64,000 nucleotides of DNA from Gammaproteobacteria bacterium (GCA_965215055.1 OZ244046.1:169138-233137); one strand, 5' to 3'; counted from the first letter of the stretch, positions 8,701 to 62,691 are shown. The notes: generated from the letters alone by a model not told the origin. Program-made: numbers and translations.

Positions 8701-8702
8701 TT

Positions 8703-39938: not shown

Positions 39939-39992
39939 GGAGTGGCTCTGTTACAGCAATGTAACCGACGACAGTCTGAACTACGGGAACAG

Positions 39993-40022
39993 GGCCGCCC
40001 ATGAGGCGGCCTTGTTGTTTTT
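39993..40022 (+). terminator. Rho-independent terminator between mtoX and the downstream SCO1-like gene
   Basis: GGCCGCC-catga-GGCGGCC (7-bp GC stem, 5-nt loop) followed by TTGTTGTTTTT. Confidence 0.55.
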
Positions 40023-40038
40023 GGACCGTGTTTCATAA

Positions 40039-40776: not shown

Positions 40777-40778
40777 CT

Positions 40779-44157: not shown

Positions 44158-45531
44158 ATGGCGGAAACGACACCATCGAAATCAGGGAATAAGCCTGTAG
44201 AGAAAAAAAACATAAAGATTGTCAAGGATGCAACCTGTACTTTTTGCGGTTGTGTCTGTGATGACATGGAGCTTACCGTAGACCTTGATGAGCATCGCAT
44301 TACCAAGGCCAAAAAGGCATGTGTACTGGGTCGGGCATGGTTTTACGAGCACACTTTGGAAGATCGTCCCGTAGTCCTGATTGATGGCAAGGAGGCGGAT
44401 CTGGAGGAAGGTATTGAGGTCGCCGCGCAAGTTTTGGTAAATGCGAAATTTCCAATTACCTATGGCTTAAGTGATTCGCCTTGTGAGGCGCAGCGTGTTG
44501 CGGTAGGCATTATGGACACCATCAACGGCAACATTGATACTACGACCTCCGTTTGCCATGGCCCATCGGGCATGGCTTTTCAGGGCGTAGGTGAAAGTAC
44601 TGCAACGTTGGGTGAAATAAGAAATCGTGCTGACCTGGTAGTCTATTGGGGAGGAAACCCTGCCGAGTCTCATCCTCGGCATTTCACCCGTTACGCCGTA
44701 ACACCAAAGGGAATGTATATTCCAAATGGCAAGAAAGATCGTACCGTAGTCCTCGTTGACGTGCGCAGAACACCTAGCACGCCGGTGGCAGATATATTCG
44801 TGCAGATTAAACCGGGAAAGGACTTTGAACTGCTTTGGGCGTTGCGCGCGCTGGTTAAAGGTAGAAGCATCAATGATAACATTGAAGAAGAAACCGGTGT
44901 TTCAAGAGAACTTCTTGATGATCTGGTGCATCGCATGAAAAACGCGCAGTACGGTGTTCTATTCCTGGGTATGGGGCTGACTATGACAAGAGGGCGCCAT
45001 TTTAACTCTGGTGCCATATACTCTTTGGTCGCAGATCTTAACAAGCATACGCACTTTGTTGCCAAACCTGTACGCGGCCATGGCAACGTAACGGGTGCTG
45101 ATAACGTCGTATCCTGGCAGACCGGGTATCCATTCGGCGTCAATTTTAATCGCGGCTACCCGAGATTTAATCCTGGCGAGTTCACTACGAGCGACGTGCT
45201 TTCTCGCGGAGAAACGGATGCTGCAATGATTATTGCTTCTGACCCGGCATCGAATTTTCCCAAGAAAGCGATTAACCATTTGAAAAAAATTCCAGTTATT
45301 ACCCTGGATGCAAAAGAAACGCATACGACCAGAATTTCTAAGGTGCGTTTTGCCGTGGCAACGTATGGCATCAATACGGGGGGGACAGTGTATAGAATGG
45401 ATGATGTTCCCATCTCATTGAGACCTGCTTTTGATTCACCTTTTCCGACGGATCAGGAGGTATTGGAGGGGATACACAAACGTGTAAAAGAACTGGTCAA
45501 GAGAAGCAGGACAAGAAGGATAGCCGCTTAG
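44158..45531 (+). CDS. fhcB: formyltransferase/hydrolase complex subunit B (FwdB/FmdB homologue, molybdopterin-oxidoreductase fold)
   Basis: 457 aa; N-terminal Cys cluster CTFCGCVCDDM as in FwdB; position within the fhc cluster. Confidence 0.75.
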   Translation: MAETTPSKSGNKPVEKKNIKIVKDATCTFCGCVCDDMELTVDLDEHRITKAKKACVLGRAWFYEHTLEDRPVVLIDGKEADLEEGIEVAAQVLVNAKFPITYGLSDSPCEAQRVAVGIMDTINGNIDTTTSVCHGPSGMAFQGVGESTATLGEIRNRADLVVYWGGNPAESHPRHFTRYAVTPKGMYIPNGKKDRTVVLVDVRRTPSTPVADIFVQIKPGKDFELLWALRALVKGRSINDNIEEETGVSRELLDDLVHRMKNAQYGVLFLGMGLTMTRGRHFNSGAIYSLVADLNKHTHFVAKPVRGHGNVTGADNVVSWQTGYPFGVNFNRGYPRFNPGEFTTSDVLSRGETDAAMIIASDPASNFPKKAINHLKKIPVITLDAKETHTTRISKVRFAVATYGINTGGTVYRMDDVPISLRPAFDSPFPTDQEVLEGIHKRVKELVKRSRTRRIAA

Positions 45532-45597
45532 ATAAACAACTATTTTCTTTATAACGGCTACATTTACCGTAGTTGTTATTTTTAAGAATAATTACAA

Positions 45598-47244
45598 ATG
45601 TCATCAGAATTACGAATCGTCAATGGCCGTGTTTACGACCCCGCCAATAATATTGACGGCAAAATTCAGGACATCTGTATCAAAGATGGCAAAATCGTAG
45701 ATTCCGTCTCGAGTTCCGCCGTTAAAATCAATGCGCATGGCATGGTCGTCATGCCTGGTGCGATAGATATCCATTGTCATATCGCGGGGCCCAAAGTCAA
45801 CCTCGCGCGTAAACTGCTGCCAGAAGATCATCGCCTGGACGTTCATCCCAGGACTGCGGTCACGCGCTCCGGCACCGGCGGCATCGTGCCTTCAACGTTC
45901 GCTACCGGCTATCGCTATGCCACCATGGGATATACCACGGCGATGGAGGCTGCGGTACCCCCGATTACTGCAAGACATGTACTCGAGGAACTGGACGATA
46001 CGCCCGTTATCGACAAGGGTTTTTATGTGCTGCTGGGCAACAATGCATTCCTGTATAAACTTTTGAAAGAAGGGCGTAAAAAAGAGTTCAAAGAGGCTAT
46101 CGCATGGTGGGTCGATTCAGTACATGGTTACACCGTCAAATTGGTGAATACGGGGAGCGATGAACTTTGGAAGGGTCGTAAAAACGCCAATATTACTGAC
46201 GTGAACGAAACCATTGATCATTATGACATTACACCAATTCATGTTATCGAGAGCTTCATTGAAGCCGCGCATGAGCTAGGTTTTCCACATCCTCCGCACA
46301 TTCACTGCAACAACCTGGGCCATAGCGGTAATATCAGCACCACTTTAGACACCATGAAGGCTGCGCAGGGGCGGCGTGTGCATATAGCACATGTCCAGTT
46401 TCACAGTTTTGGAGGAGAGCTGAATAAAAATCCCGTCTCAGGCGCGCAGCAGATTATCGATTACGTAAACGAACATGAAAATATCACTACCGATGTAGGT
46501 CAAGTCATGTTCGGCAAAGCCACTGCCATGACGGCAGATGCCCCGCTGGCCTGGATGTTGCGTGACGTCAAGTTCGACAAGTGGGTTAATGCAGACACAG
46601 AGTGTGAAAGTGGTTGCGGCATCATTCCATTCTCGTACCAGCAGAGCGTATACACGCATACCTTGCAATGGGCCATGGGCCTGGAATTGTTCTTGATGTC
46701 CAAAGACCCCTGGCGCGTATTATTATCGACCGACCATCCCAATGGGGGTTCCTTCATGAACTACCCCAAGCTTGTCAGGCTACTGATGGATAGTGCTTAT
46801 CGGAAAGAGGCCTTAAAGCATGTGAATCAAAAGGCTATCGATAAAACTGCATTATATGATCTTGATCGGGAGTACACACTTAACGAAATCGCGATCATTA
46901 CCCGGGCGGGACCTGCGAGGGCTTTGGGTTTAACGAACAAAGGTCATCTTGGCGTTGGTGCCGATGCGGATATTACGATCTATACCGAGGAAGAAAACAA
47001 GGAAGAAATGTTCAATGCGCCGCGCTACGTGATCAAGGACGGCGTGGTGGTAATTGAAGACCATGAGTTTGCAACTGATCATAAAGGCAAGATACTGCAC
47101 TCAAAACCAGGCTACAACAAAGATATTGCAAAAGAGATCGAACCTTTTTTTGAGAGCTATTATTCAGTTAAATTTAGTAATTACGCGATTGGTGATGAGT
47201 ATCTGCATCACCATGAAGAAATTCCCACCAAGCCCAAATCGTGA
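45598..47244 (+). CDS. fhcA: formyltransferase/hydrolase complex subunit A (FwdA homologue, amidohydrolase fold)
   Basis: 548 aa; amidohydrolase metal-binding HxH (DIHCHIAG) and other FwdA-like blocks. Confidence 0.8.
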   Translation: MSSELRIVNGRVYDPANNIDGKIQDICIKDGKIVDSVSSSAVKINAHGMVVMPGAIDIHCHIAGPKVNLARKLLPEDHRLDVHPRTAVTRSGTGGIVPSTFATGYRYATMGYTTAMEAAVPPITARHVLEELDDTPVIDKGFYVLLGNNAFLYKLLKEGRKKEFKEAIAWWVDSVHGYTVKLVNTGSDELWKGRKNANITDVNETIDHYDITPIHVIESFIEAAHELGFPHPPHIHCNNLGHSGNISTTLDTMKAAQGRRVHIAHVQFHSFGGELNKNPVSGAQQIIDYVNEHENITTDVGQVMFGKATAMTADAPLAWMLRDVKFDKWVNADTECESGCGIIPFSYQQSVYTHTLQWAMGLELFLMSKDPWRVLLSTDHPNGGSFMNYPKLVRLLMDSAYRKEALKHVNQKAIDKTALYDLDREYTLNEIAIITRAGPARALGLTNKGHLGVGADADITIYTEEENKEEMFNAPRYVIKDGVVVIEDHEFATDHKGKILHSKPGYNKDIAKEIEPFFESYYSVKFSNYAIGDEYLHHHEEIPTKPKS

Positions 47245-47262
47245 CGGCCCCTGTGGTTAATC

Positions 47263-48150
47263 GTGAAAATCAACAAGACTAAAATTGTAGATACGTTTGC
47301 GGAGGCCTTCGAGATGTGTGGTGCGCGCATAGTCATCACTGCCGATACCAAGCATTGGGCGCGTGCAGCAGCGGCCTCGATAACCGGCTTCGCGACTTCG
47401 GTAATTCGGTGCAAACTGGAAGCTGCAGTGGAGTGCGAAATACCCGAAGAGGACACACCTGACCGCCGACCTGGAGTTAGTGTCTTGTTATTTACCATGA
47501 GTGAGAAAACCATTGCAGGGCAATTAATCGACCGTATTGGACAGTGTGCAATGACATGTCCGACTACAGCAGCTTATAACGGCTTGAAGTCTGACAAGAC
47601 AGTAATGGTAGGTGGGAAATTACGGTTTTTTGGTGACGGCTATCAGATTAGCAAAGTCATTAACGGACGAAGATTGTGGCGCATTCCGGTCATGGAAGGC
47701 GAGTTCCTGGTAGACGACGTATTTGGCACGTTGCCTGCCATTGGGGGAGGCAATTTAATAATCTTTGGAACGAGCAAAAATATTGCTTTGCGTGCTGCTG
47801 TTGCCGCAGCCAACGCAATGCGCGAGGTAGCAGGTGTATTTTTGCCTTTTCCCCAGGGAGTCGTTCGCTCGGGAAGCAAGGTCGGCTCACGTTACAAGTC
47901 GTTAATTGCTTCAACGAGTGACCCTTACTGTCCCACCTTGCGCTCAATCTCATCCGATACCGTTGTTCCAGACAAGGTGGAATCCGTTTACGAGATTGTT
48001 GTGGACGGCCTGCATGAAGACGCAGTTAAAAAGGCCATGCGCCGTGGCATTCATGCAGCCTCAAGCAAGGGTGCGTTGATGATTACTGCGGGGAACTACG
48101 GTGGTGAGCTTGGGCAATATAAATTCCATTTGCACGAAATACTAAAATAG
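47263..48150 (+). CDS. fhcD: formylmethanofuran--tetrahydromethanopterin N-formyltransferase (Ftr)
   Basis: 295 aa, the size of Ftr, with the Ftr-like N-terminus KIVDTFAEAFEMCGARIVITA; position between fhcA and fhcC. Confidence 0.8.
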   Translation: MKINKTKIVDTFAEAFEMCGARIVITADTKHWARAAAASITGFATSVIRCKLEAAVECEIPEEDTPDRRPGVSVLLFTMSEKTIAGQLIDRIGQCAMTCPTTAAYNGLKSDKTVMVGGKLRFFGDGYQISKVINGRRLWRIPVMEGEFLVDDVFGTLPAIGGGNLIIFGTSKNIALRAAVAAANAMREVAGVFLPFPQGVVRSGSKVGSRYKSLIASTSDPYCPTLRSISSDTVVPDKVESVYEIVVDGLHEDAVKKAMRRGIHAASSKGALMITAGNYGGELGQYKFHLHEILK

Positions 48151-48198
48151 TATTAAAAATAATAAGATATAAAAACTATATAAAGTAATTATTAAAGA

Positions 48199-49017
48199 AT
48201 GAGTGTTACGCTTTTACAATTACACACGCAGCCTGAAGTTCCATTGGAAGCTGAGGCAATAAGCCCTCCTGCTCTGGTTGGGTTGTCCGAGTCTGGTATT
48301 GAACACCTTCAGGTACTGCATGGTAACGCAAAAGCCAAGTTAGGTGATTTTTTCAAGATTACTGGAAGGGGAAGCCCAAATATCCACCTTGAGGGTGATT
48401 TAAGCAATATCAAAATGATTGGTGCAGGCATGTCACAGGGGAAAATCACCATAGAAGGCGACGTAGGCATGCATGTTGGTATCGGGATGTCCGGTGGTAA
48501 GATTTTAATCAAAGGCAACGCCAATGACTGGGTAGGGCCGGAGATGTCTGGTGGGCAGATTATCGTTAATGGGAATGCTGGACACATGATAGGCAGCGCG
48601 TTTCGTGGCCAGTCATCCGGAATTCAAGGTGGAGAGATATTTATTCTTGGTAGCGCCAAAAATGAAATAGGCAACTCCATGCGCCGTGGTTTTATTGCGA
48701 TTGGCGGTGATGCCGGGGATTTTCCCGGCGTAAATATGTTGGCGGGAACCATTATCATAATGGGTAAAATGGGCGTTCGCGCAGGGGCAGGCATGAAGAG
48801 GGGTACAATCGTATCCTTTGAAGAAGCTCCAATGTTGCCCAGCTTCGAGTATTCATGTACATACCATCCCCTGTTTTTACGTTTTTACCTCATCAGGTTG
48901 CAGGAAAATGGGTTTGGGCACAAAATTCGGAACCAGCACTTGAATGGCAAATATAGACGCTATAGTGGAGACGGGATTGAACTTAATCGTGGTGAAGTAC
49001 TGCTATTTTCAGGATAG
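48199..49017 (+). CDS. fhcC: formyltransferase/hydrolase complex subunit C (FwdC homologue; GXGXG repeat beta-helix as in the glutamate synthase C-terminal domain)
   Basis: Repeated G-x-G motifs: GKILIKGNANDWVGPEMSGGQIIVNGNAGHMIGSAFRG. Confidence 0.8.
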   Translation: MSVTLLQLHTQPEVPLEAEAISPPALVGLSESGIEHLQVLHGNAKAKLGDFFKITGRGSPNIHLEGDLSNIKMIGAGMSQGKITIEGDVGMHVGIGMSGGKILIKGNANDWVGPEMSGGQIIVNGNAGHMIGSAFRGQSSGIQGGEIFILGSAKNEIGNSMRRGFIAIGGDAGDFPGVNMLAGTIIIMGKMGVRAGAGMKRGTIVSFEEAPMLPSFEYSCTYHPLFLRFYLIRLQENGFGHKIRNQHLNGKYRRYSGDGIELNRGEVLLFSG

Positions 49018-49101
49018 TGCTCATCTTTTTTGCCTTGCGACATTCGCCACGGTCTCTATGTTATAGTTTAATTGCTTCAGCGATATAGGAGAGAGACACA
49101 C

Positions 49102-49407
49102 ATGACTACGGTTGTAACGGAAAACTGTAAAGGATGTCGTTTCACGGATTGTGTAGCAGTATGCCCAGTTGCGTGCTTTCATTATGACGATGAAATGCTA
49201 TATATTGACCCTGACGTATGTATTGATTGCAGTGCTTGTATTCCGGAGTGTCCGGTTGAGGCAATCTACGAGGAAGATGACTTGCCGGATGGGCAGGAAG
49301 AGTGGGTTGAGATTAACGCCGCGAAGGCCCCTGATTTACCACTGATTGAAGAGACCATGGAACCGCTGCCTGGTGCAGAAGACCGTAAGACGGAACTAGG
49401 CTTTTAG
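49102..49407 (+). CDS. fdxA: 7Fe ferredoxin (Azotobacter FdxA type, [3Fe-4S][4Fe-4S])
   Basis: MTTVVTENCKGCRFTDCVAVCPVACFHYDDEMLYIDPDVCIDCSACIPECPVEAIYEEDDLP is collinear with FdxA. The ORF is open from 49072, but the conserved start is at 49102. Confidence 0.85.
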   Translation: MTTVVTENCKGCRFTDCVAVCPVACFHYDDEMLYIDPDVCIDCSACIPECPVEAIYEEDDLPDGQEEWVEINAAKAPDLPLIEETMEPLPGAEDRKTELGF

Positions 49408-51036: not shown

Positions 51037-51441
51037 TTGGCAGGGAGTAAAGAAATGTTCAACGCGCTTAACGTTCCATTTGGGTGTGTAATGTTATACA
51101 ACGTTGTCAAATTGAAAGAAGGTGTTTCCGAAGAAGACGTGCAGCTTGCGTTAGGCGAGATGTGCAATGTTGTCAAGAACACCTATGGTGATGACAAGGG
51201 CGGCTTCATAGGGGGGCAGGTATATAAATTCTCCGGCTTTGTCTCTGATGAAGGTTCAATAGCTTCTAAGAAACAAACGGAAGATCATATAGCTATCGTT
51301 ACCTATTGGCAGTCTTTCGAACAACATGAAAAATCTCATGCAGACCAGGCTTTCAAGGAAAAGTTTGACGCCTTGGGTGAATATGCGAGTGAAACTTACG
51401 AAGTAGGTTATGAAATGCTTTGGCAAGGTGAACCCGAGTAA
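51037..51441 (+). CDS. hypothetical protein, possibly an ABM-like ferredoxin-fold protein
   Basis: 134-aa ORF immediately after fpr; the segment HIAIVTYWQSFEQHEKSHADQAFKEKF resembles the C-terminal half of ABM-domain monooxygenases. Confidence 0.35.
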   Translation: MAGSKEMFNALNVPFGCVMLYNVVKLKEGVSEEDVQLALGEMCNVVKNTYGDDKGGFIGGQVYKFSGFVSDEGSIASKKQTEDHIAIVTYWQSFEQHEKSHADQAFKEKFDALGEYASETYEVGYEMLWQGEPE

Positions 51442-51445
51442 AAGC

Positions 51446-51976
51446 CTACTGTGATTTTCTGGCAGCGGGTTTTCGCTTGGTACGCTTTGGAGCCAGGGAG
51501 AACCAGGATTCTTGAGTCAGGGTATGGTAGTAATCAGCCTCATCGATTAAAAGCTTTGAAGCGGTACTTGGCACAGCGGCAATTTCAACTCGCACCCCTT
51601 CAGACTTGAGGTGTCTTACCAGCTCAATAAAATCGGCGTCACCGGACATGATGATAATAGTGTCCACCTTGCTGGCAACTTGCATAGCTTTGATAGTCAG
51701 TGGAATATCAGCGCTTTTATGACATGGTTGTACTGAACCATGATAAAAATCGTGCAAGCGTTCCTGCAATTTTTGGGAGATTTGTTTCCCTTCCCGAAAA
51801 TATACAAGGCGGCTGAGGCCCCTGTTATCCAGTAATTTCGGGACTAGCGTATCGAAATTAAGCATGGTATTTGTATCGCCGGTTTCTGTATGGATGCTAC
51901 GCTCTATATTATTACCGTCTATTAAAATAGCGACGGATTGACTGATAAGCACGCTTTCTGGCTGTTGAGTCGTCAT
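51446..51976 (-). CDS. NYN-domain (LabA-like PIN-related) protein
   Basis: 176 aa: VAILIDGNNIERSIH ... IIIMSGDADFIELVRHLKSEGVRVEIAA is the characteristic NYN/LabA pattern. Confidence 0.65.
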   Translation of the reverse strand: MTTQQPESVLISQSVAILIDGNNIERSIHTETGDTNTMLNFDTLVPKLLDNRGLSRLVYFREGKQISQKLQERLHDFYHGSVQPCHKSADIPLTIKAMQVASKVDTIIIMSGDADFIELVRHLKSEGVRVEIAAVPSTASKLLIDEADYYHTLTQESWFSLAPKRTKRKPAARKSQ

Positions 51977-52046
51977 GGTTTTATATATCCCCTGTAAAGA
52001 ATAATGGTGCTGGTCGTCTCAGATTTTATTCGAGAAACAAAGAACT

Positions 52047-53801
52047 ATGGATGTATTAAAGTTAACGGAAGAACAATTTTATAACAGACTGTGCTCACAT
52101 ATCTCCAGGATTTACAAAGAGCATGAAGTAGAAACGATAGCCGGGAAACTGTTGGAAGGGTTTTCTGATTTACAACTCACAAATACCCAACAACACCCTT
52201 ATCATCTAGATGCAAACTGGGACGAGCAAGACGTTTGCCTGATAACCTACGGTAACTCTATCCGTTCAGAACCGACCAAGCCGCTCCGTGTTTTATATGA
52301 ATTCCTAACGAAATACATGAGAGGTGTGACAAACACCGTTCATATACTGCCATTCTTTCCGTACAGCTCTGATGACGGCTTCGCGGTTATCGATTACAAA
52401 AAGGTTAATCGCGAACTGGGAGATTGGGAGGATATCAAAAAAATAGCGGGCCGATTCAAGCTGATGACGGACTTGGTCATCAACCACGTTTCATCCAGGA
52501 ACGAGTGGTTTCAACAATATCTAAAAGACGAGCAGCCGGGGCGTGATTACTTTGTTGAAGTGGATTTGAAAGATGACATATCACAGGTAATAAGACCCAG
52601 GCACAGCCCGTTACTACAGGAAGTGAACACCAGCCGGGGCAAAAGACTTGTTTGGTGTACATTCAGTTTTGACCAAGTTGACCTTGATTTTTCCAATCCG
52701 GACGTGTTGCTTGATTTTGTACACATTCTCCGTTTTTACCTGGAGAAAGGCGCACGCGTCATACGCCTGGATGCAATTGCCTTTTTATGGAAAGAAATCG
52801 GCACTTCTTGCATCAACCTGCCTCAAACGCATGAAATCGTAAAAGTTTTTCGGCTGATAACCGAGCGATATTTTCCGGGCACCGTGTTCGTGACCGAGAC
52901 CAACATTCCAAACCTGGAAAATCTGAAATATTTTGGCAATTCCAACGAGGCCCACATTATTTACAACTTCAGTCTTCCGCCATTGCTGTTGCACGCATTA
53001 TGGGCAGGTAGTTCTGAATACCTGACAAGGTGGTCAATGAGCTTTCCTCCTGCACCACTGGGTTGTACCTACTTGAACTTCACTGCGTCTCATGACGGCA
53101 TAGGCTTGCGGCCTGTTGAGGGTATGTTGGCAGACAGTGAAATAGACGCCCTTGTCTCCGGTATGCGACAACTTGGAAGTGAAGTGACCACCAGGTCGAT
53201 AACTGCTGCGGGCGAGCGACCATATGAGATTAATATCACGTGGTTTGAAGCGATGAAAGGGACCAGGAAAGGTACTGACCCTTATCAGGTCGAAAGGTTC
53301 TTGTGCTCTCAAATCGTGATGCTGGGATTAGAGGGAATACCTGCTTTTTACATTAACAGCCTGTTTGCTGCGGAAAACGATCGTGAGGCGTTTGCCGCCA
53401 CCAGGCACAAAAGGTCCATCAACCGGAAGCAGTGGAACCTGGAAGAACTTGAATCTCAATTGTTTGACATTGGCTCGACGCCTTCCAGGGTTTATTTCGA
53501 GTTGAAAAGGCTTATTGCGATAAGATCGAAACAGGAGGCATTTCACCCCAATGCCACGCAATATACCTTACACCTGGGACCGGGCATATTCGGTTTTTGG
53601 CGGCAAAGCAGAAATCGTGATCAAAGTATATTCGCAATCCATAACCTGACCGACGTTATGCAAGAAATGCTCTTGTCCCATATCAACCTTACCAGTACGT
53701 GTAACTGGATGGACCTGGTCGCCTGGGACGTCCTGGATTTATCAAGAGATAAACTGGAACTTCATCCCTATCAGTGCTTGTGGATTACGAATAAAATCTG
53801 A
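52047..53801 (+). CDS. GH13_18 sucrose-phosphorylase-family glycoside phosphorylase (candidate glucosylglycerate phosphorylase)
   Basis: Collinear with sucrose phosphorylase (HILPFFPYSSDDGFAVIDY, LVINHVS, RLDAIAFLWKEIGTSC, LPPLLLHAL, FTASHDGIGLRP). Divergently adjacent to the GpgS/GpgP genes. Confidence 0.75.
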   Translation: MDVLKLTEEQFYNRLCSHISRIYKEHEVETIAGKLLEGFSDLQLTNTQQHPYHLDANWDEQDVCLITYGNSIRSEPTKPLRVLYEFLTKYMRGVTNTVHILPFFPYSSDDGFAVIDYKKVNRELGDWEDIKKIAGRFKLMTDLVINHVSSRNEWFQQYLKDEQPGRDYFVEVDLKDDISQVIRPRHSPLLQEVNTSRGKRLVWCTFSFDQVDLDFSNPDVLLDFVHILRFYLEKGARVIRLDAIAFLWKEIGTSCINLPQTHEIVKVFRLITERYFPGTVFVTETNIPNLENLKYFGNSNEAHIIYNFSLPPLLLHALWAGSSEYLTRWSMSFPPAPLGCTYLNFTASHDGIGLRPVEGMLADSEIDALVSGMRQLGSEVTTRSITAAGERPYEINITWFEAMKGTRKGTDPYQVERFLCSQIVMLGLEGIPAFYINSLFAAENDREAFAATRHKRSINRKQWNLEELESQLFDIGSTPSRVYFELKRLIAIRSKQEAFHPNATQYTLHLGPGIFGFWRQSRNRDQSIFAIHNLTDVMQEMLLSHINLTSTCNWMDLVAWDVLDLSRDKLELHPYQCLWITNKI

Positions 53802-53806
53802 AGTGC

Positions 53807-55021
53807 CTACTGTTTGTTGTCCTGTGAAACGGCGTCGTACAATGACGAGAGAACGTTGGGTACCGCGCTGGCAACGCGCGACCAGGTCGGCATAAACGGA
53901 GCTTCCATGGGGTTAGACAGGAACTTGTCACCTGCACTCATTATATTCTGCGCAAATAATTCAACCGTGCTTTCTTCCTTGTGGCGGTCTACGTGGAGCT
54001 TGTTCATTGCAGCGTCATTGGAATAATGGTCGATCAAATCCAGCGCACATCGGTAATATGCGGCTTTAATCGTGCGAAACAGTTCGGGAGTTAACGTAAT
54101 TCCGTGAGTTGACAGTTTACGAAAAATAATCTTGGAAATATCTATGCTCATCTTGGACAACCCGCGGCTCGAATCATCCTCGGAAAGTATTTGATGTTTA
54201 TGGTCATAACGACCTGCAATATCCACTTGACAGATACGCTGATTGGAATATTTGCGGTACATTTCTGAAAGAATACCTATTTCGAGTCCCCAGTCGCAGG
54301 GGATGCGCAATGAATTTACGACGCTTGCACGCATCGAAAACTCCCCGGCCAGGACATAGCGAAAACTGCTCAGAAAATCCAGGTAACCATGCGGCCTGAT
54401 TGCCTGTTTCAACGCCGTAAGAAGCGGTAGCACCAGTAATCTTGAGACACGGCCGGAAAACTGCTCGTGATGAGCCCGGTAGTAGTACCCCTTGCAGAAT
54501 ACATAATCGAACGTGGGATGGGTTACGGGATAAAGCAGCTTTGCCGGAATAGAGCGGTCATACGTCAAGACGTCACAGTCATGCAAAGCTACTGCATCGG
54601 ATTTGCCTGAAGCGAGAAAATAACCCAGGCAATACCAGACATTTCTTCCTTTACCGGCCTCATTGGGCGCCAGGCTATGGACGTGAATAGTCCGGTCAAT
54701 TTCTAACAGTTGCGGCCCATCGTTCCATAAAATCACGTGATGCTGAGGTAACCTGCTGAAAAATTCCTTCGCATGGTGAAACTCCTCCCTGTTTGCGGCA
54801 TCAAGACCGATGATGATCTCGGAAAGATAGGGTACTTCGCTCAAGTGCGTAATAATATTGGCCAATGCCGGGTCCCGAAGCTCGGAATACAGGCACGGCA
54901 GTATCAGTGACATGGGACGTGTCTTACTCCATTCAACCAGTTCTTTTTCCAGTGACTCGGAAGTACGGTTGGTAAGATCGTGTAAAGTCGCAATTACTCC
55001 GTTTTGGAAAAAGTCTGTCAT
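53807..55021 (-). CDS. gpgS: glucosyl-3-phosphoglycerate synthase (GT81 family; related to mannosyl-3-phosphoglycerate synthase)
   Basis: Blocks parallel mycobacterial GpgS (LILPCLYSEL vs VVLPALNEE; GKGRNVW; HDCDV; GRVSRLLVLPLLTAL vs GRVTELVARPLLAAL; DWGLEIGIL vs GYGVEIGLL). Overlaps the downstream HAD phosphatase by 4 bp. Confidence 0.65.
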   Translation of the reverse strand: MTDFFQNGVIATLHDLTNRTSESLEKELVEWSKTRPMSLILPCLYSELRDPALANIITHLSEVPYLSEIIIGLDAANREEFHHAKEFFSRLPQHHVILWNDGPQLLEIDRTIHVHSLAPNEAGKGRNVWYCLGYFLASGKSDAVALHDCDVLTYDRSIPAKLLYPVTHPTFDYVFCKGYYYRAHHEQFSGRVSRLLVLPLLTALKQAIRPHGYLDFLSSFRYVLAGEFSMRASVVNSLRIPCDWGLEIGILSEMYRKYSNQRICQVDIAGRYDHKHQILSEDDSSRGLSKMSIDISKIIFRKLSTHGITLTPELFRTIKAAYYRCALDLIDHYSNDAAMNKLHVDRHKEESTVELFAQNIMSAGDKFLSNPMEAPFMPTWSRVASAVPNVLSSLYDAVSQDNKQ

Positions 55022-55824
55022 TGATGCAACTCCTCAAGCAATTCTGTTAACGTATCATTCCACCCCCGGGGCCCGGAGTTATCGGCACAAATGAGACGTG
55101 CACGACTATCAAGGCCCTGGTTTGGTGAATCGGGATTCGGGATGACAACACCGTAATCGGCGCTCTCCAGCATTTTAAGATCATTCGGGCTATCTCCCAG
55201 GGCAATGGAAATTGTGCTTTTGCTGCGGTACCCCTGGTATTTTTTCAATAAAAGCGACATTGTCATGGCCTTATCGTGGTGTCCCATAACGTGATAAAAC
55301 CGTCCGCCACTCAAGAGTTGCAAATCATGATCTTCCAGGTGTTTTGCAAATGCTTCGAGTCGGTCATTGCCATCTCGCCAGTGTACAGGTTCGCTACATT
55401 CCCGGGCATTTGCATTACAGGCTTGTTTCTCATCGAGTCCTGCGAGTTGCATGATTTCACTGCACGCCATTTCGCTGAATGACTTGAACTTGTACAATCC
55501 GGATACCTTTTTCAGGGCCATGGCGATATCCCTGCGTGGGGTTCCTATCAATTCTTTTTCATAAACCCTTGAAGTTGTACCAGTTGAAAAATAGTTCTCT
55601 GGAATCGCAAGTAACCCCCCGTTCTCGGCGATATACGGGTGATACAAATTCGTCTGGGCACACAACTCTTCTATTTCAACGGCGGTTTTACTGCTTGTAA
55701 AAATCAATGGAATATCCTGCCGGCGAATAGTATCCAAGCAGGAAGTGGCAGGCGCGAAGCTATAACTGTTATGGTCAAGCAGCGTGCCGTCCAGGTCCGT
55801 GAATATAATGACCAGGGTGTCCAT
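55018..55824 (-). CDS. gpgP: glucosyl/mannosyl-3-phosphoglycerate phosphatase (HAD-IIB, YedP/MpgP family)
   Basis: IIFTDLDGTLLD ... IFTSSKT ... GDSPNDLKML is collinear with E. coli YedP. The start is taken at MDTLVIIF (cat at 55822-55824); the ORF is open to 55911. Confidence 0.7.
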   Translation of the reverse strand: MDTLVIIFTDLDGTLLDHNSYSFAPATSCLDTIRRQDIPLIFTSSKTAVEIEELCAQTNLYHPYIAENGGLLAIPENYFSTGTTSRVYEKELIGTPRRDIAMALKKVSGLYKFKSFSEMACSEIMQLAGLDEKQACNANARECSEPVHWRDGNDRLEAFAKHLEDHDLQLLSGGRFYHVMGHHDKAMTMSLLLKKYQGYRSKSTISIALGDSPNDLKMLESADYGVVIPNPDSPNQGLDSRARLICADNSGPRGWNDTLTELLEELHQ

Positions 55825-55949
55825 GTAAATGCTAGTGGTATTCTTTTCGTTTGTGCGTCTGGCTGGCTCCAGGATGAAGCTTTTTGTGTTCTTTATACCA
55901 GATGATTCCATATACTAGTATTATCGTTTGCGTATTAAATCTCCGCATC

Positions 55950-57341
55950 ATGCATATACACGTTTATAACACTTTGACTAATGAAAAGGAGAGGTTCGTA
56001 CCGGTTAATCCCGAGCGTGTAACCATGTATGTCTGTGGGCCGACCGTCTACAGTCATCCGCATATAGGAAATGCACGTCCCGCAGTCGTATTTGACGTAC
56101 TTTACCGCCTGCTCAAGCACGAGTTTTCGAACGTCGTCTATACACGCAACATCACCGACGTGGACGACAAGATAAACAACGCGGCATCGGAAGAAAACGT
56201 TTCGATTGAAACAATCAGCTCCCGCTACACGGATATCTACCATCGTGACATGGCAGAGCTGGGCGTCCTTCCTCCAACGGTCGAGCCCAGGGCAACGGAA
56301 CACATACCACAAATTATAGACATGATTCAGGGATTGATTACTGCCGGCAATGCTTACGAAGCCGAAGGTCACGTTCTTTTCCACGTGCTTTCCTATACTG
56401 AATATGGAAAATTATCCGGTCGCAACATGAAAGAGATGATTGCGGGCGCACGAGTAGAGGTTGCGCCGTTCAAAAAAGACCCCGCGGATTTCGTGTTATG
56501 GAAGCCTTCGGATAAAGACCAGCCTGCCTGGGACAGCCCATGGGGCCAGGGCCGTCCGGGTTGGCATATCGAGTGTTCAGCAATGGCTGAAAGGCACCTT
56601 GGTGAAACCATCGATATCCATGGAGGCGGGCAGGACCTGGTTTTTCCGCACCATGAAAACGAAAAGGCGCAAAGCACGTGCGCCCACGGTGGAAAATTAT
56701 TCAGTCGGTACTGGATGCACAATGGATTTGTAAACGTCGCGCACGAAAAGATGTCTAAATCGACAGGCAACGTCCTGCTGGTTCGTGATTTGCTTAAACA
56801 GGCTCCCGGGGAGACCATTCGCTTTACCTTGCTTGGCACACATTACCGCAAACCGCTCAACTGGGCAGGTGACGTCCTTGATCAATCCTCCAGAAAGCTG
56901 GACCGGCTCTATGGCGCTTTGCTGGGATTGCAGGATATAAACGTCGAGCCTTCAGCCGAAGACATACCTGCATTATTTATCGATACACTAAAGGACGACT
57001 TGAATACCCCTGCGGCTTTTGCCGTGTTACACAAATTGGCCAAGCAGGCCAATACCGCCCCTGGTCGTGAGACGAGAAAGAAAATTAAAAAGCAGTTATT
57101 GGCCGCCGGCGGGGTCCTGGGCGTATTGCAACAAGATCCTGTAGCGTGGTTCCAGGGTGCAGGAGAACTTGATGAAAATGAAATCGGCGCGTTAATTCAG
57201 TCCAGAATTGAGGCAAAAAAGAAACGGAACTTCAGGTTGGCAGATGAAATTCGGGACCAACTGACTGCAATGGGCATCGAAATCCAGGATCAGCCGGATG
57301 GAACTTCAAACTGGCGAAAAAAATCCGTGTATGATGGGTGA
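55950..57341 (+). CDS. cysS: cysteine--tRNA ligase
   Basis: HIGH motif (SHPHIGNA), KMSKS motif, zinc-binding Cys ligands; the start is taken at MHIHVYNTLT (atg at 55950). Confidence 0.9.
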   Translation: MHIHVYNTLTNEKERFVPVNPERVTMYVCGPTVYSHPHIGNARPAVVFDVLYRLLKHEFSNVVYTRNITDVDDKINNAASEENVSIETISSRYTDIYHRDMAELGVLPPTVEPRATEHIPQIIDMIQGLITAGNAYEAEGHVLFHVLSYTEYGKLSGRNMKEMIAGARVEVAPFKKDPADFVLWKPSDKDQPAWDSPWGQGRPGWHIECSAMAERHLGETIDIHGGGQDLVFPHHENEKAQSTCAHGGKLFSRYWMHNGFVNVAHEKMSKSTGNVLLVRDLLKQAPGETIRFTLLGTHYRKPLNWAGDVLDQSSRKLDRLYGALLGLQDINVEPSAEDIPALFIDTLKDDLNTPAAFAVLHKLAKQANTAPGRETRKKIKKQLLAAGGVLGVLQQDPVAWFQGAGELDENEIGALIQSRIEAKKKRNFRLADEIRDQLTAMGIEIQDQPDGTSNWRKKSVYDG

Positions 57342-57400: not shown

Positions 57401-57652
57401 ATGAGGGGTTTGGTACCACCTGATCCTGAAGGCGGCGTATCGAAATTCCAATATGCGGTGGTTTACGTACCTAAACGAAATCGCAACCGATTTTCAGCCA
57501 ACTGTGTAAAAATTAAGGCCAATGCTGAAGAAGCGCTTGCAGCCTCTGACACTGAAAACAAGCAATTTGCAGCAAAGCTGCTGGGTCCTTCCAAGTCTTC
57601 AGAAGGGCAACATATTTACTACTTGATCGAATGGCTGGAGGCAGACACGTAA
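57401..57652 (+). CDS. hypothetical small protein upstream of and overlapping mptG
   Basis: 83-aa ORF; no recognisable motif. Confidence 0.3.
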   Translation: MRGLVPPDPEGGVSKFQYAVVYVPKRNRNRFSANCVKIKANAEEALAASDTENKQFAAKLLGPSKSSEGQHIYYLIEWLEADT

Positions 57653-57666
57653 CCGGCGACGAACTC

Positions 57667-58656
57667 ATGGACTCCCCATCAATATACATAGAAGCTCCGG
57701 CACGCTTACATCTTGGTTTCTTAGACCTGGAAGGGGGCCTGGGCAGGCGTTTTGGTGGTCTCGGGCTCACGCTGAACGATATTACGACTAAAATCCTGGT
57801 TCATCGCGCGAAGCAGCTTGAAGTGCTGGGGGATTCGTCAGGACGGGTGCAAAAATATGCAGAGCAGTTTTTTGAACGCAAGGGACTTGCAGGCGGTTGC
57901 CGGATAGAAGTTATTGATCAAATTATCGACCATTCCGGGCTGGGCTCCGGGACCCAGCTCGCGTTGGCTGTCGGTACTGCGATTGCCAAGCTTTTTGCCT
58001 TGAAATGCGACGGCCCGGAGATTGCTGCCGTACTCAATCGCGGCATTCGGTCGGGGATTGGCATAGGCGCGTTTCAGCACGGTGGATTCCTGGTTGACGC
58101 TGGAAGAAACGTCGATAGCGCGGTTCCACCTGTCGTTTCACGCACGTGTTTTCCATCGAGTTGGCGTGTACTGATTGTGCTGGATGTAGCGCATCGCGGA
58201 TTACACGGAAAAGATGAACACGCCTCTTTTCTGGCCTTACCTGCATTTCCTTCACAAACTGCGGCTTACCTGTGTCGGCTGGTAATGATGCAGGTGCTGC
58301 CGGCAATTGTTGAACAGGATATTGGTGAGTTTGGCGAAGGTGTTTACGAAGTACAGAAATGCCTGGGAAAATTTTTCGCATCCGTACAAGGAGGGCGTTA
58401 TACTAGCGCCGCCGTTGGTGACGTTATCCGTTACATCGAATCAACGGGCATCCAGGGTGTGGGGCAAAGCTCCTGGGGGCCGACCGGATTTGCCTTTGTA
58501 GACAGCGAGACGCAAGCTCATATACTCTTGCGAGACGTGCAGGCAAGATTCAGTGACAACCAGAACCTGCGATTTAAGGTCGTATCCGGAAGAAATACCG
58601 GGGCAATAATAGAACAACAAGATAATATTTCCTTACCCAAGGCAAACAGGTCCTGA
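57667..58656 (+). CDS. mptG: beta-ribofuranosylaminobenzene 5'-phosphate synthase (tetrahydromethanopterin biosynthesis)
   Basis: GHMP-kinase-like fold with the beta-RFAP synthase N-terminal pattern IEAPARLHLGFLDLEGGLGRRFGGLGLTL; located in the H4MPT gene cluster. Confidence 0.65.
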   Translation: MDSPSIYIEAPARLHLGFLDLEGGLGRRFGGLGLTLNDITTKILVHRAKQLEVLGDSSGRVQKYAEQFFERKGLAGGCRIEVIDQIIDHSGLGSGTQLALAVGTAIAKLFALKCDGPEIAAVLNRGIRSGIGIGAFQHGGFLVDAGRNVDSAVPPVVSRTCFPSSWRVLIVLDVAHRGLHGKDEHASFLALPAFPSQTAAYLCRLVMMQVLPAIVEQDIGEFGEGVYEVQKCLGKFFASVQGGRYTSAAVGDVIRYIESTGIQGVGQSSWGPTGFAFVDSETQAHILLRDVQARFSDNQNLRFKVVSGRNTGAIIEQQDNISLPKANRS

Positions 58657-58745
58657 GAAGTGATGCTGAATATGCGTATGCAGAGACAGCCCGTGTTCAG
58701 TTTTTATCTTCAGTAATTATCTTTTCATCACGAAAAGGGAGAGAA

Positions 58746-59648
58746 ATGGGAAAGCCGTACATTCTTCACATGTTTACCCCGGCAAAGAACCTGAGCCCAT
58801 TCGATGTAAACATGGCGTTGGACGCGGGCTGGGAGCACGTGACAGGCTATTGCGACGTTGAAAAAGAAGAAGTGCAGGCACTTGTCCAGGATGCAATTTT
58901 TTCACGTGGGCCGGCCGGAGTTAAGCGCACGGGTATATTTCTTGGCGGCCGCGATATGCACCTTGCCATGGATATGATAGAGATTTGCCGGGAGTCGATG
59001 GTGCCGCCTTTTGAAGTGTCCTGCTTTGCTGATCCGAGTGGCGCCTTTACTACGGCGGCAGGGATGGTTGCACGTGCGGAAAAAGCACTGCGAGACAGGT
59101 TTGATACTGACTTCAAGGGCAAACACGTCATCGTGATGGGTGGCACTGGTCCGGTTGGTTCCACTGCAGCAGTACTCGCGGCCAAGGCAGGGGCCAATGT
59201 AAAAATAATGGGGCGCCAAAAAGACAAATCACAACACGTAGCCTCGCTTTGCAACGACAGGTATGGAGAAGGCTCGACCAGCATACAAGGTGAAGCCAAC
59301 GACATGATTGACGACCTGATACAGACTGCGGATATAGTATTTGCCGCCACTGCTGCCGGTATACAGATCCTCTCGGAAGAACACATTGCGACGGCGGGTA
59401 GTCTGAAAATTGCGGCCGACGTCAATGCCGTACCACCTTCAGGAATTGCTGGTCTTGACGTAATGGGTGACTGTGAACCTATCAAGGGGTCGGAAAGTGG
59501 AGCCGTAGGCATTGGTGCGCTTGCTATTGGCAACGTTAAATATCAAACTCAGCATAAACTTTTGCAAGAAATGCACAATTCCGACAAACCGGTTTACCTC
59601 CATTTTGAACGTGCCTTCAAAATTGCCAGGGAGATTGCGCAGGAGTAA
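58746..59648 (+). CDS. mtdB: NAD(P)-dependent methylene-tetrahydromethanopterin dehydrogenase (MtdA/MtdB family)
   Basis: Collinear with M. extorquens MtdA (SPFDVNMALDAGWEHVTGY, TGIFLGGRDM, FEVSCFADPSGAFTTAAGMVA, VIVMGGTGPVGSTAA, LGIGALAIGNVKYQ). Confidence 0.8.
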   Translation: MGKPYILHMFTPAKNLSPFDVNMALDAGWEHVTGYCDVEKEEVQALVQDAIFSRGPAGVKRTGIFLGGRDMHLAMDMIEICRESMVPPFEVSCFADPSGAFTTAAGMVARAEKALRDRFDTDFKGKHVIVMGGTGPVGSTAAVLAAKAGANVKIMGRQKDKSQHVASLCNDRYGEGSTSIQGEANDMIDDLIQTADIVFAATAAGIQILSEEHIATAGSLKIAADVNAVPPSGIAGLDVMGDCEPIKGSESGAVGIGALAIGNVKYQTQHKLLQEMHNSDKPVYLHFERAFKIAREIAQE

Positions 59649-60771
59649 ACGCATATATCTCGTTATTGCTGCATCCGGACGGGCGATTGCTCAAGCACTC
59701 AAGGCCATCGGGAATACCGTGGCGGTAATAGATGGTTTTGCAGACGTGGATACCCGTGCCGTAGCGGAAGTATGTAAAAAAGTTTCACGTATAAAGTATG
59801 GTCTTGATACCAGGGGAGTCTTGCAGGCAGTTCATCAACTACAGGGAAAATACGAATTCGAGGGTTTATTGTATGACGCCGCCATGGAATCGACCCCGGA
59901 TTTGCTTGATTCCGTTTCCGTTGACGACATTATCGGTAATTCAAGCCGCACACTTCGAAGGTGTAAAGATCCTGAAACCTTTTTCTCGACGTTGAATAAA
60001 CACGCAATACCATACCCTGAAGTAAGCTTTGAACGTCCGGGAAATCCGGCTGACTCATGGTTGGTAAAACATGCGGCGGGTACTGGTGGATTGGGAGTAT
60101 GCGATATATCGGGAGAGCTTGATACAAAGGAAAACGTCTATTTCCAGAGAAAAATTGACGGCATTAATTTTTCATTAACGTTTCTTGCCAATGGCAGTGA
60201 AATAAAGCCGCTGGGCTTTAACCAACTGTGGGTTGAGTCCCTGGGGGAAAACATGCCGTATACTTATACAGGAGCAATTAATTACGTCAGCCTGACGCAG
60301 CGTCAGCAGAGCATGACCATCAATTATGCATCGGTACTCGCGCGCGAGTTCGAGCTTGTTGGCCTGAACAGCATGGATTGTATTTTATCCGGCGGCTCCG
60401 TTTATGCCATAGAAGTAAACCCCCGCATACCGGCAACTTATGAATTATACGAGACCAGGCATGGTGACCTGCTTAAAGAGCACATTGAAGCCTGCAAGAC
60501 ACACGTGTTTACGGCAGGCCAGAAAAAACCACTTCTTCGAGGTCATGCGATCGTGTATGCGCCGAACCCTGTTCAAATACCGGAAAACTTCACGTGGCCG
60601 TTATGGACGGCAGACCGTCCGCATCCCGGGGAGGCGATCGACGTACATCAACCGATATGCAGTGTCTTTGCAGGAGGCAAGAACGCAGCCCAGGTACGCG
60701 AAATAATACGTACCCGTAAAGACGTAATAATCAATAAACTCACGTACGTAAGAGACAACCACTACCAATAG
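59611..60771 (+). CDS. ATP-grasp family protein of the H4MPT-biosynthesis cluster (orf9-like)
   Basis: ATP-grasp C-terminal features (IEVNPRIPATYELYE). The ORF is open from 59512, overlapping mtdB by 137 bp. The true start is probably a GTG or TTG between 59605 and 59637. Confidence 0.55.
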   Translation: MPSKLPGRLRRSKRIYLVIAASGRAIAQALKAIGNTVAVIDGFADVDTRAVAEVCKKVSRIKYGLDTRGVLQAVHQLQGKYEFEGLLYDAAMESTPDLLDSVSVDDIIGNSSRTLRRCKDPETFFSTLNKHAIPYPEVSFERPGNPADSWLVKHAAGTGGLGVCDISGELDTKENVYFQRKIDGINFSLTFLANGSEIKPLGFNQLWVESLGENMPYTYTGAINYVSLTQRQQSMTINYASVLAREFELVGLNSMDCILSGGSVYAIEVNPRIPATYELYETRHGDLLKEHIEACKTHVFTAGQKKPLLRGHAIVYAPNPVQIPENFTWPLWTADRPHPGEAIDVHQPICSVFAGGKNAAQVREIIRTRKDVIINKLTYVRDNHYQ

Positions 60772-60785
60772 ACAAGAGGACCGAG

Positions 60786-61730
60786 ATGATCAGTGTTAAT
60801 GAACTGGCAAAGCCGCTGGTACAAGAGCTTAAGGACAAGCGTCATGCCTTGAGGATCAAGGTGGAGCAATTTCCCAACGGGGCCACGTGCATAGACGCCG
60901 GAATAGATTGTGCCGGCGGGCTTGAAGCCGGCAGGATTATCAGTGAAATTTGCATGGGAGGATTGGGCAAGGTAACGTTTTATCACTCAACAGCAGTTGG
61001 CGATTGGCCACTTTCACTGCACGTGCATACCTCTCATCCCGTGTTGGCGTGCCTGGCAAGCCAGTGTGCCGGCTGGAGCTTGTCGCATAAGAAATTTCGC
61101 GCACTGGGTTCAGGACCGGGGCGTGCCATTGCGGTAAAGGAGTCGCTGTTTGAAAAGCTGGACTATAAAGATGAGTGCGATACCGCCATCTTTGTACTTG
61201 AAGTAGACGAACTGCCGCCAGTTGAACTGATCGATGAAGTTGCCGAAGTTTGCAATTTATCTCCCGCCGCGTTGACCTTTATCTTCACACCTGCCAGCTC
61301 CATTGCCGGCTGTGTGCAAGTGGCAGCCCGGTCATTGGAAGTAGCCCTGCACAAAACCAGTGAACTGGGCTTTCCCTTGGATAACGTCCTGGACGGCTCG
61401 GGCAGTGCACCTTTATCTCCGCCTATACCCGGTACCGTCAAGGCTATGGGTCGTACCAATGATGCCATTTTGTTCGCGAGCAGGGTTCAGCTGTTTGTAC
61501 ACGGTGACGATGCAGCAGCGGAAAAACTTGCACTGGAACTTCCATCCAGCACCTCGCGCGACTACGGAAAACCGTTCGCGCAAATCTTCAAGGACTATAA
61601 ATATAATTTCTTCGAAATAGATCCCATGCTTTTCAGCCCTGCCTTCGTAATGGTTACTGCCGTGGAAAGTGGTAACACGTTTCGGGCTGGCAAAATGGAC
61701 CTCGATATACTGAATAAATCTTTTTCCTAG
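60786..61730 (+). CDS. mch: methenyltetrahydromethanopterin cyclohydrolase
   Basis: Collinear with Mch (SVNELAKPLV, NGATCIDAGIDCAGGLEAGRIISEICMGGLGKV). Confidence 0.85.
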   Translation: MISVNELAKPLVQELKDKRHALRIKVEQFPNGATCIDAGIDCAGGLEAGRIISEICMGGLGKVTFYHSTAVGDWPLSLHVHTSHPVLACLASQCAGWSLSHKKFRALGSGPGRAIAVKESLFEKLDYKDECDTAIFVLEVDELPPVELIDEVAEVCNLSPAALTFIFTPASSIAGCVQVAARSLEVALHKTSELGFPLDNVLDGSGSAPLSPPIPGTVKAMGRTNDAILFASRVQLFVHGDDAAAEKLALELPSSTSRDYGKPFAQIFKDYKYNFFEIDPMLFSPAFVMVTAVESGNTFRAGKMDLDILNKSFS

Positions 61731-61732
61731 CA

Positions 61733-62647
61733 GTGTTACGACACATTGCGATATTTACCGATGATCCTGGTTGGCATGGCGCGGAATTGCACAAAGCCTT
61801 CAGGAAGAGGGGTTTCGGCTGTACGAACGTCTCGTTGACGGATTGTCACTTTGAGATAGACGCGGGCAGGAAAAGCCTGTTCATACCCGGTTTCGAGCAA
61901 CGTCTTCCCGACGGCGTATTTGTACGCGGTGTACCGGGCGGCTCGCTGGAAGAAGTCACGTTTTACCTGGACGTTCTTCATGCACTGCGCGAAATGGACG
62001 TTATTGTCTACAACGACGCTCGCGCTATTGAGCGCAGTGTAGACAAGGCCATGACCAGTTTCCTGCTGCATCAAGCGGGAATTTCGACGCCACTTTCCTG
62101 GGTTGGAAACGATATCCACCAAGCCTATTCATTTATACGCAAACAATTAAAACTTGGTTACAAGGTCGTGGCAAAGCCGCTGTTTGGTTCGCAGGGGAAA
62201 AATTTACAGTTGATTGCCGAACCGAGCGATATTGTCAACCTGTCGGTGTACAACAAAATCTACTACTTGCAGCGTTTCATCGAAACGGGATCAAGGCGCG
62301 CCTGTGATTGGCGGTTATTTGTTGTTGGAGATCACGTTATTGCCAGTATGAGAAGAGAAAGCAACGACTGGATCAGTAACGTGGCAAACGGTGGAAAATG
62401 TTATCCGGCACTACTGGACAGGCAGTTTATCAAGATTGCCGAAGCCGCCGTAGAGGCAGTTGGTATGCACTATGGCGGGGTAGACGTCATGCGCGACCAG
62501 GGCGGCAAACTGTGGGTAACGGAAGTAAACAGCATTCCCGCGTGGAAAGGGCTGCAAAGCACCGGCAAGATTATCATTGCAGACCGCATCGTCGAACATT
62601 TTATAAGCTGCTTGCAGGGGCAATCCAGTGTTGACGTGGCAAACTAG
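61733..62647 (+). CDS. mptN: RimK-like ATP-grasp ligase, probable tetrahydromethanopterin:alpha-L-glutamate ligase (orf5/MptN-like)
   Basis: RimK-type ATP-grasp architecture (VVAKPLFGSQGKNLQLI ... GGVDVMRD ... WVTEVNSIPAWKG); position mch-orf5-orf7-fae as in methylotroph H4MPT clusters. Confidence 0.65.
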   Translation: MLRHIAIFTDDPGWHGAELHKAFRKRGFGCTNVSLTDCHFEIDAGRKSLFIPGFEQRLPDGVFVRGVPGGSLEEVTFYLDVLHALREMDVIVYNDARAIERSVDKAMTSFLLHQAGISTPLSWVGNDIHQAYSFIRKQLKLGYKVVAKPLFGSQGKNLQLIAEPSDIVNLSVYNKIYYLQRFIETGSRRACDWRLFVVGDHVIASMRRESNDWISNVANGGKCYPALLDRQFIKIAEAAVEAVGMHYGGVDVMRDQGGKLWVTEVNSIPAWKGLQSTGKIIIADRIVEHFISCLQGQSSVDVAN

Positions 62648-62691
62648 CCGGCTGCTGAAGCAAAACCGTCATTCAAGATACATCCGCTTTC

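Follow-up and report, generated by a model that had tools for sequence, protein, structure and literature searches.

Introduction

Glucosylglycerate phosphorylase (2-O-alpha-glucosylglycerate phosphorylase, GGaP, EC 2.4.1.352) is a member of GH13_18, and its specificity was discovered because homologues of sucrose phosphorylase adjoin gpgS and gpgP, the genes for the synthase (GpgS) and the phosphatase (GpgP) of glucosyl-3-phosphoglycerate (PMC7178133, PMC11009771). A 2024 review credits Empadinhas and da Costa 2011 with this gene-neighbourhood observation (PMC11009771). Characterised GGaPs include the strict glucosylglycerate phosphorylase YcjM of Escherichia coli, Mesil_0665 of Meiothermus silvanus and Spith_0877 of Spirochaeta thermophila. 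In Synechococcus sp. PCC 7002 the genes GPGS, GGAP and GPGP are the consecutive SYNPCC7002_A2021, A2022 and A2023, and all three genes are present in 198 of 250 Marinobacter isolates (PMC10873239). The gene association is thus already described and belongs to the textbook knowledge of the field. Here we analyse an ordinary new example of it, found in a stretch of 64,000 nucleotides from a Gammaproteobacteria bacterium (GCA_965215055.1 OZ244046.1:169138-233137, hereafter the window), in which a phosphorylase gene, gpgS and gpgP lie side by side. We consider it likely that this locus encodes a two-step synthesis of glucosylglycerate together with its breakdown by a strict glucosylglycerate phosphorylase, and with it a lineage of uncultured, small-genome gammaproteobacteria carrying genes of one-carbon (C1) metabolism joins the predicted users of glucosylglycerate.

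The window phosphorylase aligns end to end with E. coli YcjM (37% identity over 569 aa, E=2e-138), whose gene product is annotated and published as a glucosylglycerate phosphorylase (table, PMC8950772). Both enzymes are of one length class (584 vs. 559 aa), with N- and C-terminal regions that are missing from the sucrose phosphorylases of about 500 aa, and both share the GH13 catalytic residues, the TETN motif, the loop-A glutamate and the clade. They differ in the modest identity and in gene context, as ycjM belongs to an operon for the uptake and catabolism of sugar (ycjMNOPQ...) that lacks gpgS and gpgP, whereas the window gene abuts the synthesis operon. The three functions are encoded together as in PCC 7002 and Marinobacter, but the locus tags of PCC 7002 place the phosphorylase between synthase and phosphatase, whereas in the window gpgP is followed by gpgS and the phosphorylase gene is convergent, and the host, a gammaproteobacterium of marine type, is uncultured and has C1-metabolism genes. 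A long-type GT81 GpgS of about 400 aa accompanied by a HAD GpgP is the combination also found in Methanococcoides burtonii, Persephonella marina, Petrotoga mobilis and Rhodopirellula baltica, the GpgS of the last being 398 aa long (PMC3736172). Another likeness is to HP15_2853/HP15_2852 of Marinobacter adhaerens, where a GH13_18 phosphorylase likewise lies beside the synthesis genes (glucosylglycerol-phosphate synthase/phosphatase) of its solute. That enzyme, a glucosylglycerol phosphorylase (GGoP), serves a glycerol-based solute, has VGAIYQ in loop A and PEVH in place of TETN, and is 29% identical to the window protein over the core.

Identity of the phosphorylase

The phosphorylase contains the Pfam Alpha-amylase (GH13 catalytic) domain (E=2.5e-22), and its score against the NCBIfam sucrose-phosphorylase equivalog TIGR03852 (sucrose_gtfA) is 196.6 bits, below the cut-off of 334.4. 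Its nearest solved structures are of GH13_18 and score modestly, namely 7qqj (195 bits), the glucosylglycerol phosphorylase 7xdq (163) and BaSP 1r7a (141 bits). The GH13 residues His147 (VINHVS), the nucleophile Asp242 (IRLDAIAF), the acid/base Glu284 and the transition-state Asp350 (SHDG) are all present and align with their counterparts in BaSP, YcjM and GGoP. GGaPs are marked by the motif (T/S)ETN at beta-strand 5 and by a glutamate in loop A, which is glutamine in most other clades (PMC7178133). The window protein carries both marks: T283-E-T-N286, containing the acid/base Glu284, and Glu394 in loop A (PYEIN). At the TETN position (I/P)E(V/I)H is found in BaSP, 7qqj, 7qqi and GGoP, and in loop A these four proteins follow the pattern YQ(V/I/L), for instance LYQVN (BaSP), IYQIN (7qqj) and IYQLT (GGoP). 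Among the best 120 homologues of the window protein, (T/S)ETN is found in all 120, YE[ILVM]N in 117 and both motifs together in 117.

A neighbour-joining tree (392 core columns, 200 bootstraps) was built from the window protein, YcjM, 11 homologues encoded beside gpgS, BaSP (the sequence used is 100% identical to 1r7a), 7qqj, 7qqi and GGoP. The split that sets BaSP, 7qqj, 7qqi and GGoP against the window protein, YcjM and the gpgS-linked homologues was recovered in 200 of 200 bootstraps, and over the core the window protein is 42% identical to YcjM and 29–33% identical to BaSP, 7qqj, 7qqi and the M. adhaerens GGoP. Phylogenetic placement of the GH13_18 protein had been proposed as a check in an initial annotation of this DNA, and its outcome, a grouping with YcjM and not with sucrose phosphorylase (SPase) or GGoP, supports the assignment to the GGaP clade, apart from the sucrose and glucosylglycerol phosphorylases, with a predicted specificity for glucosylglycerate. 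The same annotation held that the substrate could not be decided by eye from sequence. The phosphorylase can nevertheless largely be assigned, and the substrate question thereby appears largely settled for glucosylglycerate as the predicted activity. The annotation's reading of the genes as a possible make-and-break module for glucosylglycerate has likewise gained support, from the clade, both motifs, the low TIGR03852 score and the conserved pairing with gpgS described below.

Homologues of the phosphorylase appear in public annotation as “sucrose phosphorylase” or “sugar phosphorylase”, generic labels that the present assignment would correct for these genes. The closest named homologues include cyanobacterial ones, for example that of Synechococcus PCC 7336, which is 56% identical over the full length and 61.5% over the core.

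The synthase and the phosphatase

The best NCBIfam model for the synthase is NF040724 (GpgS_Meth, Methanococcoides type; E=2.6e-110), and the alignment runs from end to end, joining residues 3-403 of 404 to model positions 2-400 of 402; the score of 369 bits nevertheless stays below the equivalog cut-off of 700. The same model is matched by each of 24 diverse homologues of the synthase, and the best E-values shown are not much stronger. Because of this common match at a score under the cut-off, the synthase looks like a member of a distinct bacterial subgroup of the long-type enzyme, not of a different family. A profile of the 24 homologues run against the PDB matched GT81 structures only, with GpgS of M. 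hassiacum, M. tuberculosis and M. avium at the top and the dual mannosyl-3-phosphoglycerate/glucosyl-3-phosphoglycerate synthase (MpgS/GpgS) of Rubrobacter (3f1y) last.

In M. tuberculosis GpgS the residues of note are the Asp-x-Asp motif, the Lys114/Glu232 network, Val186 and Thr187, which contact the carboxylate of the acceptor, the loop PLSGE and the metal-binding His258 (PMC2581804). In the window synthase the residues that align with functional positions of mycobacterial GpgS are Lys124 (GKG), Asp148-x-Asp150 (HDCDV), Gly190-Arg-Val-Ser193, Leu224-Ala-Gly-Glu227, Glu247 (GLEIG) and His274/His276. Compared with M. tuberculosis, Thr187 is replaced by Ser193, and PLSGE reads V-L-A-G-E227, with Val for Pro and Ala for Ser. 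The 24 homologues show no variation at K124, D148, D150, G190, R191, G226, E227, H274 and H276, and conservation is at least 90% at V192 and E247. As for the sugar that is transferred, the conserved adjacency to a phosphorylase of the glucosylglycerate clade speaks indirectly for a glucosyl donor over a mannosyl one. The substrates of GH13 phosphorylases are alpha-glucosides, and a glucosyl product is therefore favoured by this recurrent partner of the synthase.

The phosphatase scores 221 bits against TIGR01486 (MPGP HAD-IIB family), above the cut-off of 164.75, and the E. coli YedP structure 1xvi matches it with E=2e-35. Its HAD motifs are intact, with motif I D10-L-D12-G-T, motif II S44-S-K-T and motif IV G210-D-S-P-N-D215. 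The top NCBIfam matches bear the name mannosyl-3-phosphoglycerate phosphatase (MpgP). The non-mycobacterial GpgPs are all HAD-type homologues of MpgP, and several accept both mannosyl- and glucosyl-3-phosphoglycerate (PMC3240985); therefore the “mannosyl” names of these models are no argument against a glucosyl substrate. The predicted substrate of the window enzyme is glucosyl-3-phosphoglycerate, on the ground that its gene overlaps gpgS by 4 bp.

Organization of the locus

The positions of the genes and of the intervals between them are collected in Table 1. The three long open reading frames (ORFs) that the initial annotation had placed here were found at the same coordinates in the ORF listing of the window, the 4-bp overlap of phosphatase and synthase was read directly as an ATGA, and the family assignments agree with the GH13 domain and GH13_18 relatives, the NF040724 match and the TIGR01486 score described above. 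It had also called the phosphorylase gene divergent from the synthesis operon, and this was wrong. The TGA stop of the phosphorylase gene occupies 53799-53801 and the stop of the synthase gene (CTA on the plus strand) begins at 53807, so the two units are convergent and face each other stop to stop.

Table 1. Features of the predicted glucosylglycerate locus and its borders, in window positions.
Feature	Position	Strand	Length or sequence
NYN-domain gene (Pfam PF01936), divergent neighbour of the phosphorylase gene	51446-51976	-	
Intergenic region between the divergent NYN-domain and phosphorylase genes; presumed promoter region of the phosphorylase gene	51977-52046		70 bp
GH13_18 retaining phosphorylase, predicted 2-O-alpha-glucosylglycerate phosphorylase (GGaP, EC 2.4.1.352)	52047-53801	+	584 aa
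Gap between the two facing stop codons	53802-53806		5 bp (direct read)
Long-type GT81 glucosyl-3-phosphoglycerate synthase (GpgS)	53807-55021	-	404 aa
ATGA overlap of gpgP stop and gpgS start	55018-55021	-	4 bp, CAATGACAG
HAD-IIB MpgP/GpgP-family phosphatase, predicted glucosyl-3-phosphoglycerate phosphatase	55018-55824	-	268 aa
Intergenic region between the divergent gpgP and cysS; presumed promoter region of gpgP-gpgS	55825-55949		
cysS, divergent neighbour of the phosphatase gene	about 55950-57341	+	

On the minus strand the phosphatase gene comes first and the synthase gene second, and the ATGA overlap suggests that gpgP and gpgS are translationally coupled in one operon. The maximal ORF of the phosphatase extends to 55911 (297 aa), where public gene calls place the start, and an internal ATG at 55824 gives 268 aa. 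We prefer 55824 as the start, because the orthologues in close relatives are 268-269 aa long and begin at the equivalent Met, with the N-terminus MKKQIIIFTDLDG.

The 5-bp junction between the two stop codons leaves no intergenic space for a terminator. A consensus scan for promoters and terminators over 51400-56100 gave counts no higher than in shuffled sequence, with no terminator-like site at the convergent junction, and RNA folding across the junction gave z-scores of -0.1 and -0.2 on the two strands, with no terminator-like fold. A signal of horizontal transfer in the base composition was considered and rejected, the GC content of the trio (46-47%) being in line with that of its flanks.

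Conservation of the gene arrangement

The neighbourhoods of synthase homologues were surveyed with the window synthase as query and one genome per species, and the window proteins were mapped onto the resulting 55 loci. A phosphorylase of this clade directly adjoins gpgS in 27 of the 55, and the pairing of the two genes is conserved across phyla. Nineteen of these 27 are convergent, in this lineage, in other Gammaproteobacteria and in Acidimicrobiia. In the other eight (Akkermansiaceae, Bacteroidales, Crocinitomicaceae, a Vibrio metagenome-assembled genome (MAG) and another gammaproteobacterial MAG) the phosphorylase gene is co-directional and immediately downstream of gpgS. It lies about 7 kb away in one further locus (Kolteria, Planctomycetota), is absent from 18 loci with at least 2 kb of downstream flank, and was not seen in nine loci whose flank is too short to judge.

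The order gpgP-gpgS is kept in all 14 close relatives, whose synthases are 78-84% identical to that of the window, and the junction of the two genes is tight there as well, for example with a 1-bp overlap in the locus L002. Thirteen of the 14 retain the phosphorylase gene, always convergent, and the stop-to-stop distance is between -4 and +8 bp in 12 of them, whereas the remaining one has 154 bp. The related loci carry either the label Gammaproteobacteria or that of uncultured Thiotrichales; two are complete chromosomes of about 2.7 Mb.

Some of the surveyed loci show differences of their own. The close relative L035 (L035:1684-2400, JBFGJY010000020.1) has a clean 2.37-kb deletion, equivalent to window 51984-54351, which takes residues 225-404 of gpgS and the whole phosphorylase gene; the gpgS frame ends two codons past the deletion junction and the NYN gene follows directly. 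Either that population has lost the pathway or the deletion is an artefact of assembly. Between gpgP and cysS, where the window has the intergenic region 55825-55949 and no gene, close relatives have four (L002:3673-7176). To judge from their translations, these encode a 551-aa YcbB-like L,D-transpeptidase, a protein of 189 aa, a membrane protein of 122 aa and a HAD hydrolase of 273 aa. About 1.3 kb separates gpgS from the upstream MpgP-family phosphatase gene in L042-L045 and L050 (Spirochaetales, Planctomycetota and unclassified MAGs), and the gene between the two could be mggA-like and part of a mannosylglucosylglycerate pathway. On the other side of the trio, the window stretch 51037-51976 encodes a 134-aa ORF with a weak IsdG/heme-oxygenase-like match, 84-94% identical in the relatives, and the NYN-domain protein, 84-89% identical. 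The phosphorylase (64-70%) and the phosphatase (52-58%) are both less conserved among the same relatives than these two neighbours.

Proposed pathway and alternative explanations

In the pathway that we propose, GpgS would move glucose from a nucleoside diphosphate glucose (NDP-glucose), the presumed donor, onto D-3-phosphoglycerate to give glucosyl-3-phosphoglycerate, and the coupled HAD-IIB GpgP would dephosphorylate this intermediate to the compatible solute 2-O-alpha-D-glucosylglycerate. The GH13_18 phosphorylase would then convert glucosylglycerate and phosphate to alpha-glucose 1-phosphate and D-glycerate. Such phosphorolysis, presumably the direction of flux in vivo once the solute is no longer needed, would recover the carbon and retain the energy of the glucosyl bond as glucose 1-phosphate. 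The stress that induces the synthesis may be salt or nitrogen limitation.

The three enzymes running together would form a futile cycle that costs nucleotide sugar, and therefore some regulation must exist. As the stops abut with no recognisable terminator, transcripts from either side would run antisense into the other gene, and one may imagine the abutting convergent genes as a transcriptional-interference toggle under which synthesis would exclude breakdown and the reverse, so that the futile cycle is avoided. We think such a toggle quite improbable: the conserved, terminator-less abutting convergence, which is the only slightly unusual feature of the locus, permits an interference switch and does not demonstrate it.

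Several points weigh against the proposed pathway. On the side of synthesis, the synthase falls short of its equivalog cut-off, as noted above. On the side of breakdown, the tree represents the characterised GGaPs by YcjM only, and covers neither the enzymes of M. silvanus and S. thermophila nor the bifunctional XpGP (PMC11009771) and the sucrose 6F-phosphate phosphorylases. An “SPase” of the planctomycete R. baltica, encoded beside mggS and mggB, has been reported to be active on sucrose (PMC3736172), and a review describes the role of GGaP in vivo as not yet confirmed by experiment (PMC7178133). Lastly, a glycerate kinase gene was not found within the 64-kb window.

The first alternative is that the phosphorylase is mainly synthetic and joins glucose 1-phosphate and free D-glycerate to glucosylglycerate, which would provide a second route, independent of nucleotide sugar. 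Glycerate is an intermediate of the serine cycle and the host has C1-metabolism genes, so that a pool of free glycerate is conceivable. The reaction is reversible, the characterised GGaPs have a low Km for D-glycerate of 1-5 mM (PMC11009771), and an SPase-based third route to glucosylglycerate was once proposed (PMC3736172). The eight loci with a co-directional phosphorylase gene directly downstream of gpgS also look as if the two genes were co-expressed. In the lineage of the window, however, the phosphorylase gene lies opposite to gpgP-gpgS on the other strand, behind an upstream region of its own, and is therefore not co-transcribed with them, and reviews treat GGaP as the sole known possible sink of glucosylglycerate (PMC7178133), so that we regard a mainly synthetic role as unlikely.

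The synthase and the phosphatase might also serve a different end product, either mannosylglycerate or glucosylglycerate that is only a precursor of mannosylglucosylglycerate or of a glycolipid primer. The best NCBIfam names of the phosphatase would fit mannosyl-3-phosphoglycerate, GT81 contains the dual MpgS/GpgS of Rubrobacter (PDB 3f1y; PMC3240985), and some distant loci (L042-L045, L050) have the extra gene between gpgP and gpgS. But the names of the HAD MpgP family do not separate the two substrates, the top models and structures for the synthase are all GpgS, neither the window nor the close relatives have an additional glycosyltransferase next to these genes, and the partner that is conserved, an alpha-glucoside phosphorylase, bears glucosylglycerate-specific motifs. 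Taken together, these make another end product very improbable. That the GH13_18 gene encodes an ordinary sucrose phosphorylase, or one for an unrelated sugar, and adjoins gpgS by coincidence is hardly credible in spite of the public labels of its homologues and the sucrose-cleaving R. baltica enzyme, since the protein scores under the TIGR03852 cut-off, is without the SPase residues at both diagnostic positions and is separated from the sucrose phosphorylases in every bootstrap, and its adjacency to gpgS recurs in about half of the loci and in several phyla.

Genomic context

The trio sits between genes of formaldehyde oxidation (fhc subunits, 44158-49017) and of tetrahydromethanopterin biosynthesis (57631-63546). 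The first block (44158-49407 in full) contains fhcB, encoding a protein like subunit B of formylmethanofuran dehydrogenase (TIGR03129, 513 bits), further fhc-like ORFs and a ferredoxin; the second contains beta-RFAP synthase and an MptN-like ligase of tetrahydromethanopterin biosynthesis. The two C1-metabolism blocks are thus interrupted by the glucosylglycerate trio together with cysS and the NYN gene.

Further upstream (38556-42125), a gene for methanethiol oxidase MtoX (NF052453; 767 bits, cut-off 650) precedes a 245-aa ORF that matches no family and, after it, a MauG/MbnH-like di-haem enzyme, a cluster which suggests a metabolism of sulfur and carbon derived from methanethiol or dimethyl sulfide. 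Near the beginning of the window a McrB-like protein (734 aa) and a McrC-like protein (417 aa) are encoded at 6496-9956 and resemble a type IV restriction system, both scoring far under the equivalog cut-offs. On the minus strand at 786-1835, a DksA domain covers only residues 209-347 of a maximal ORF of 349 aa, and the real start of this gene is probably much further downstream, or else the protein has an unusual N-terminal extension.

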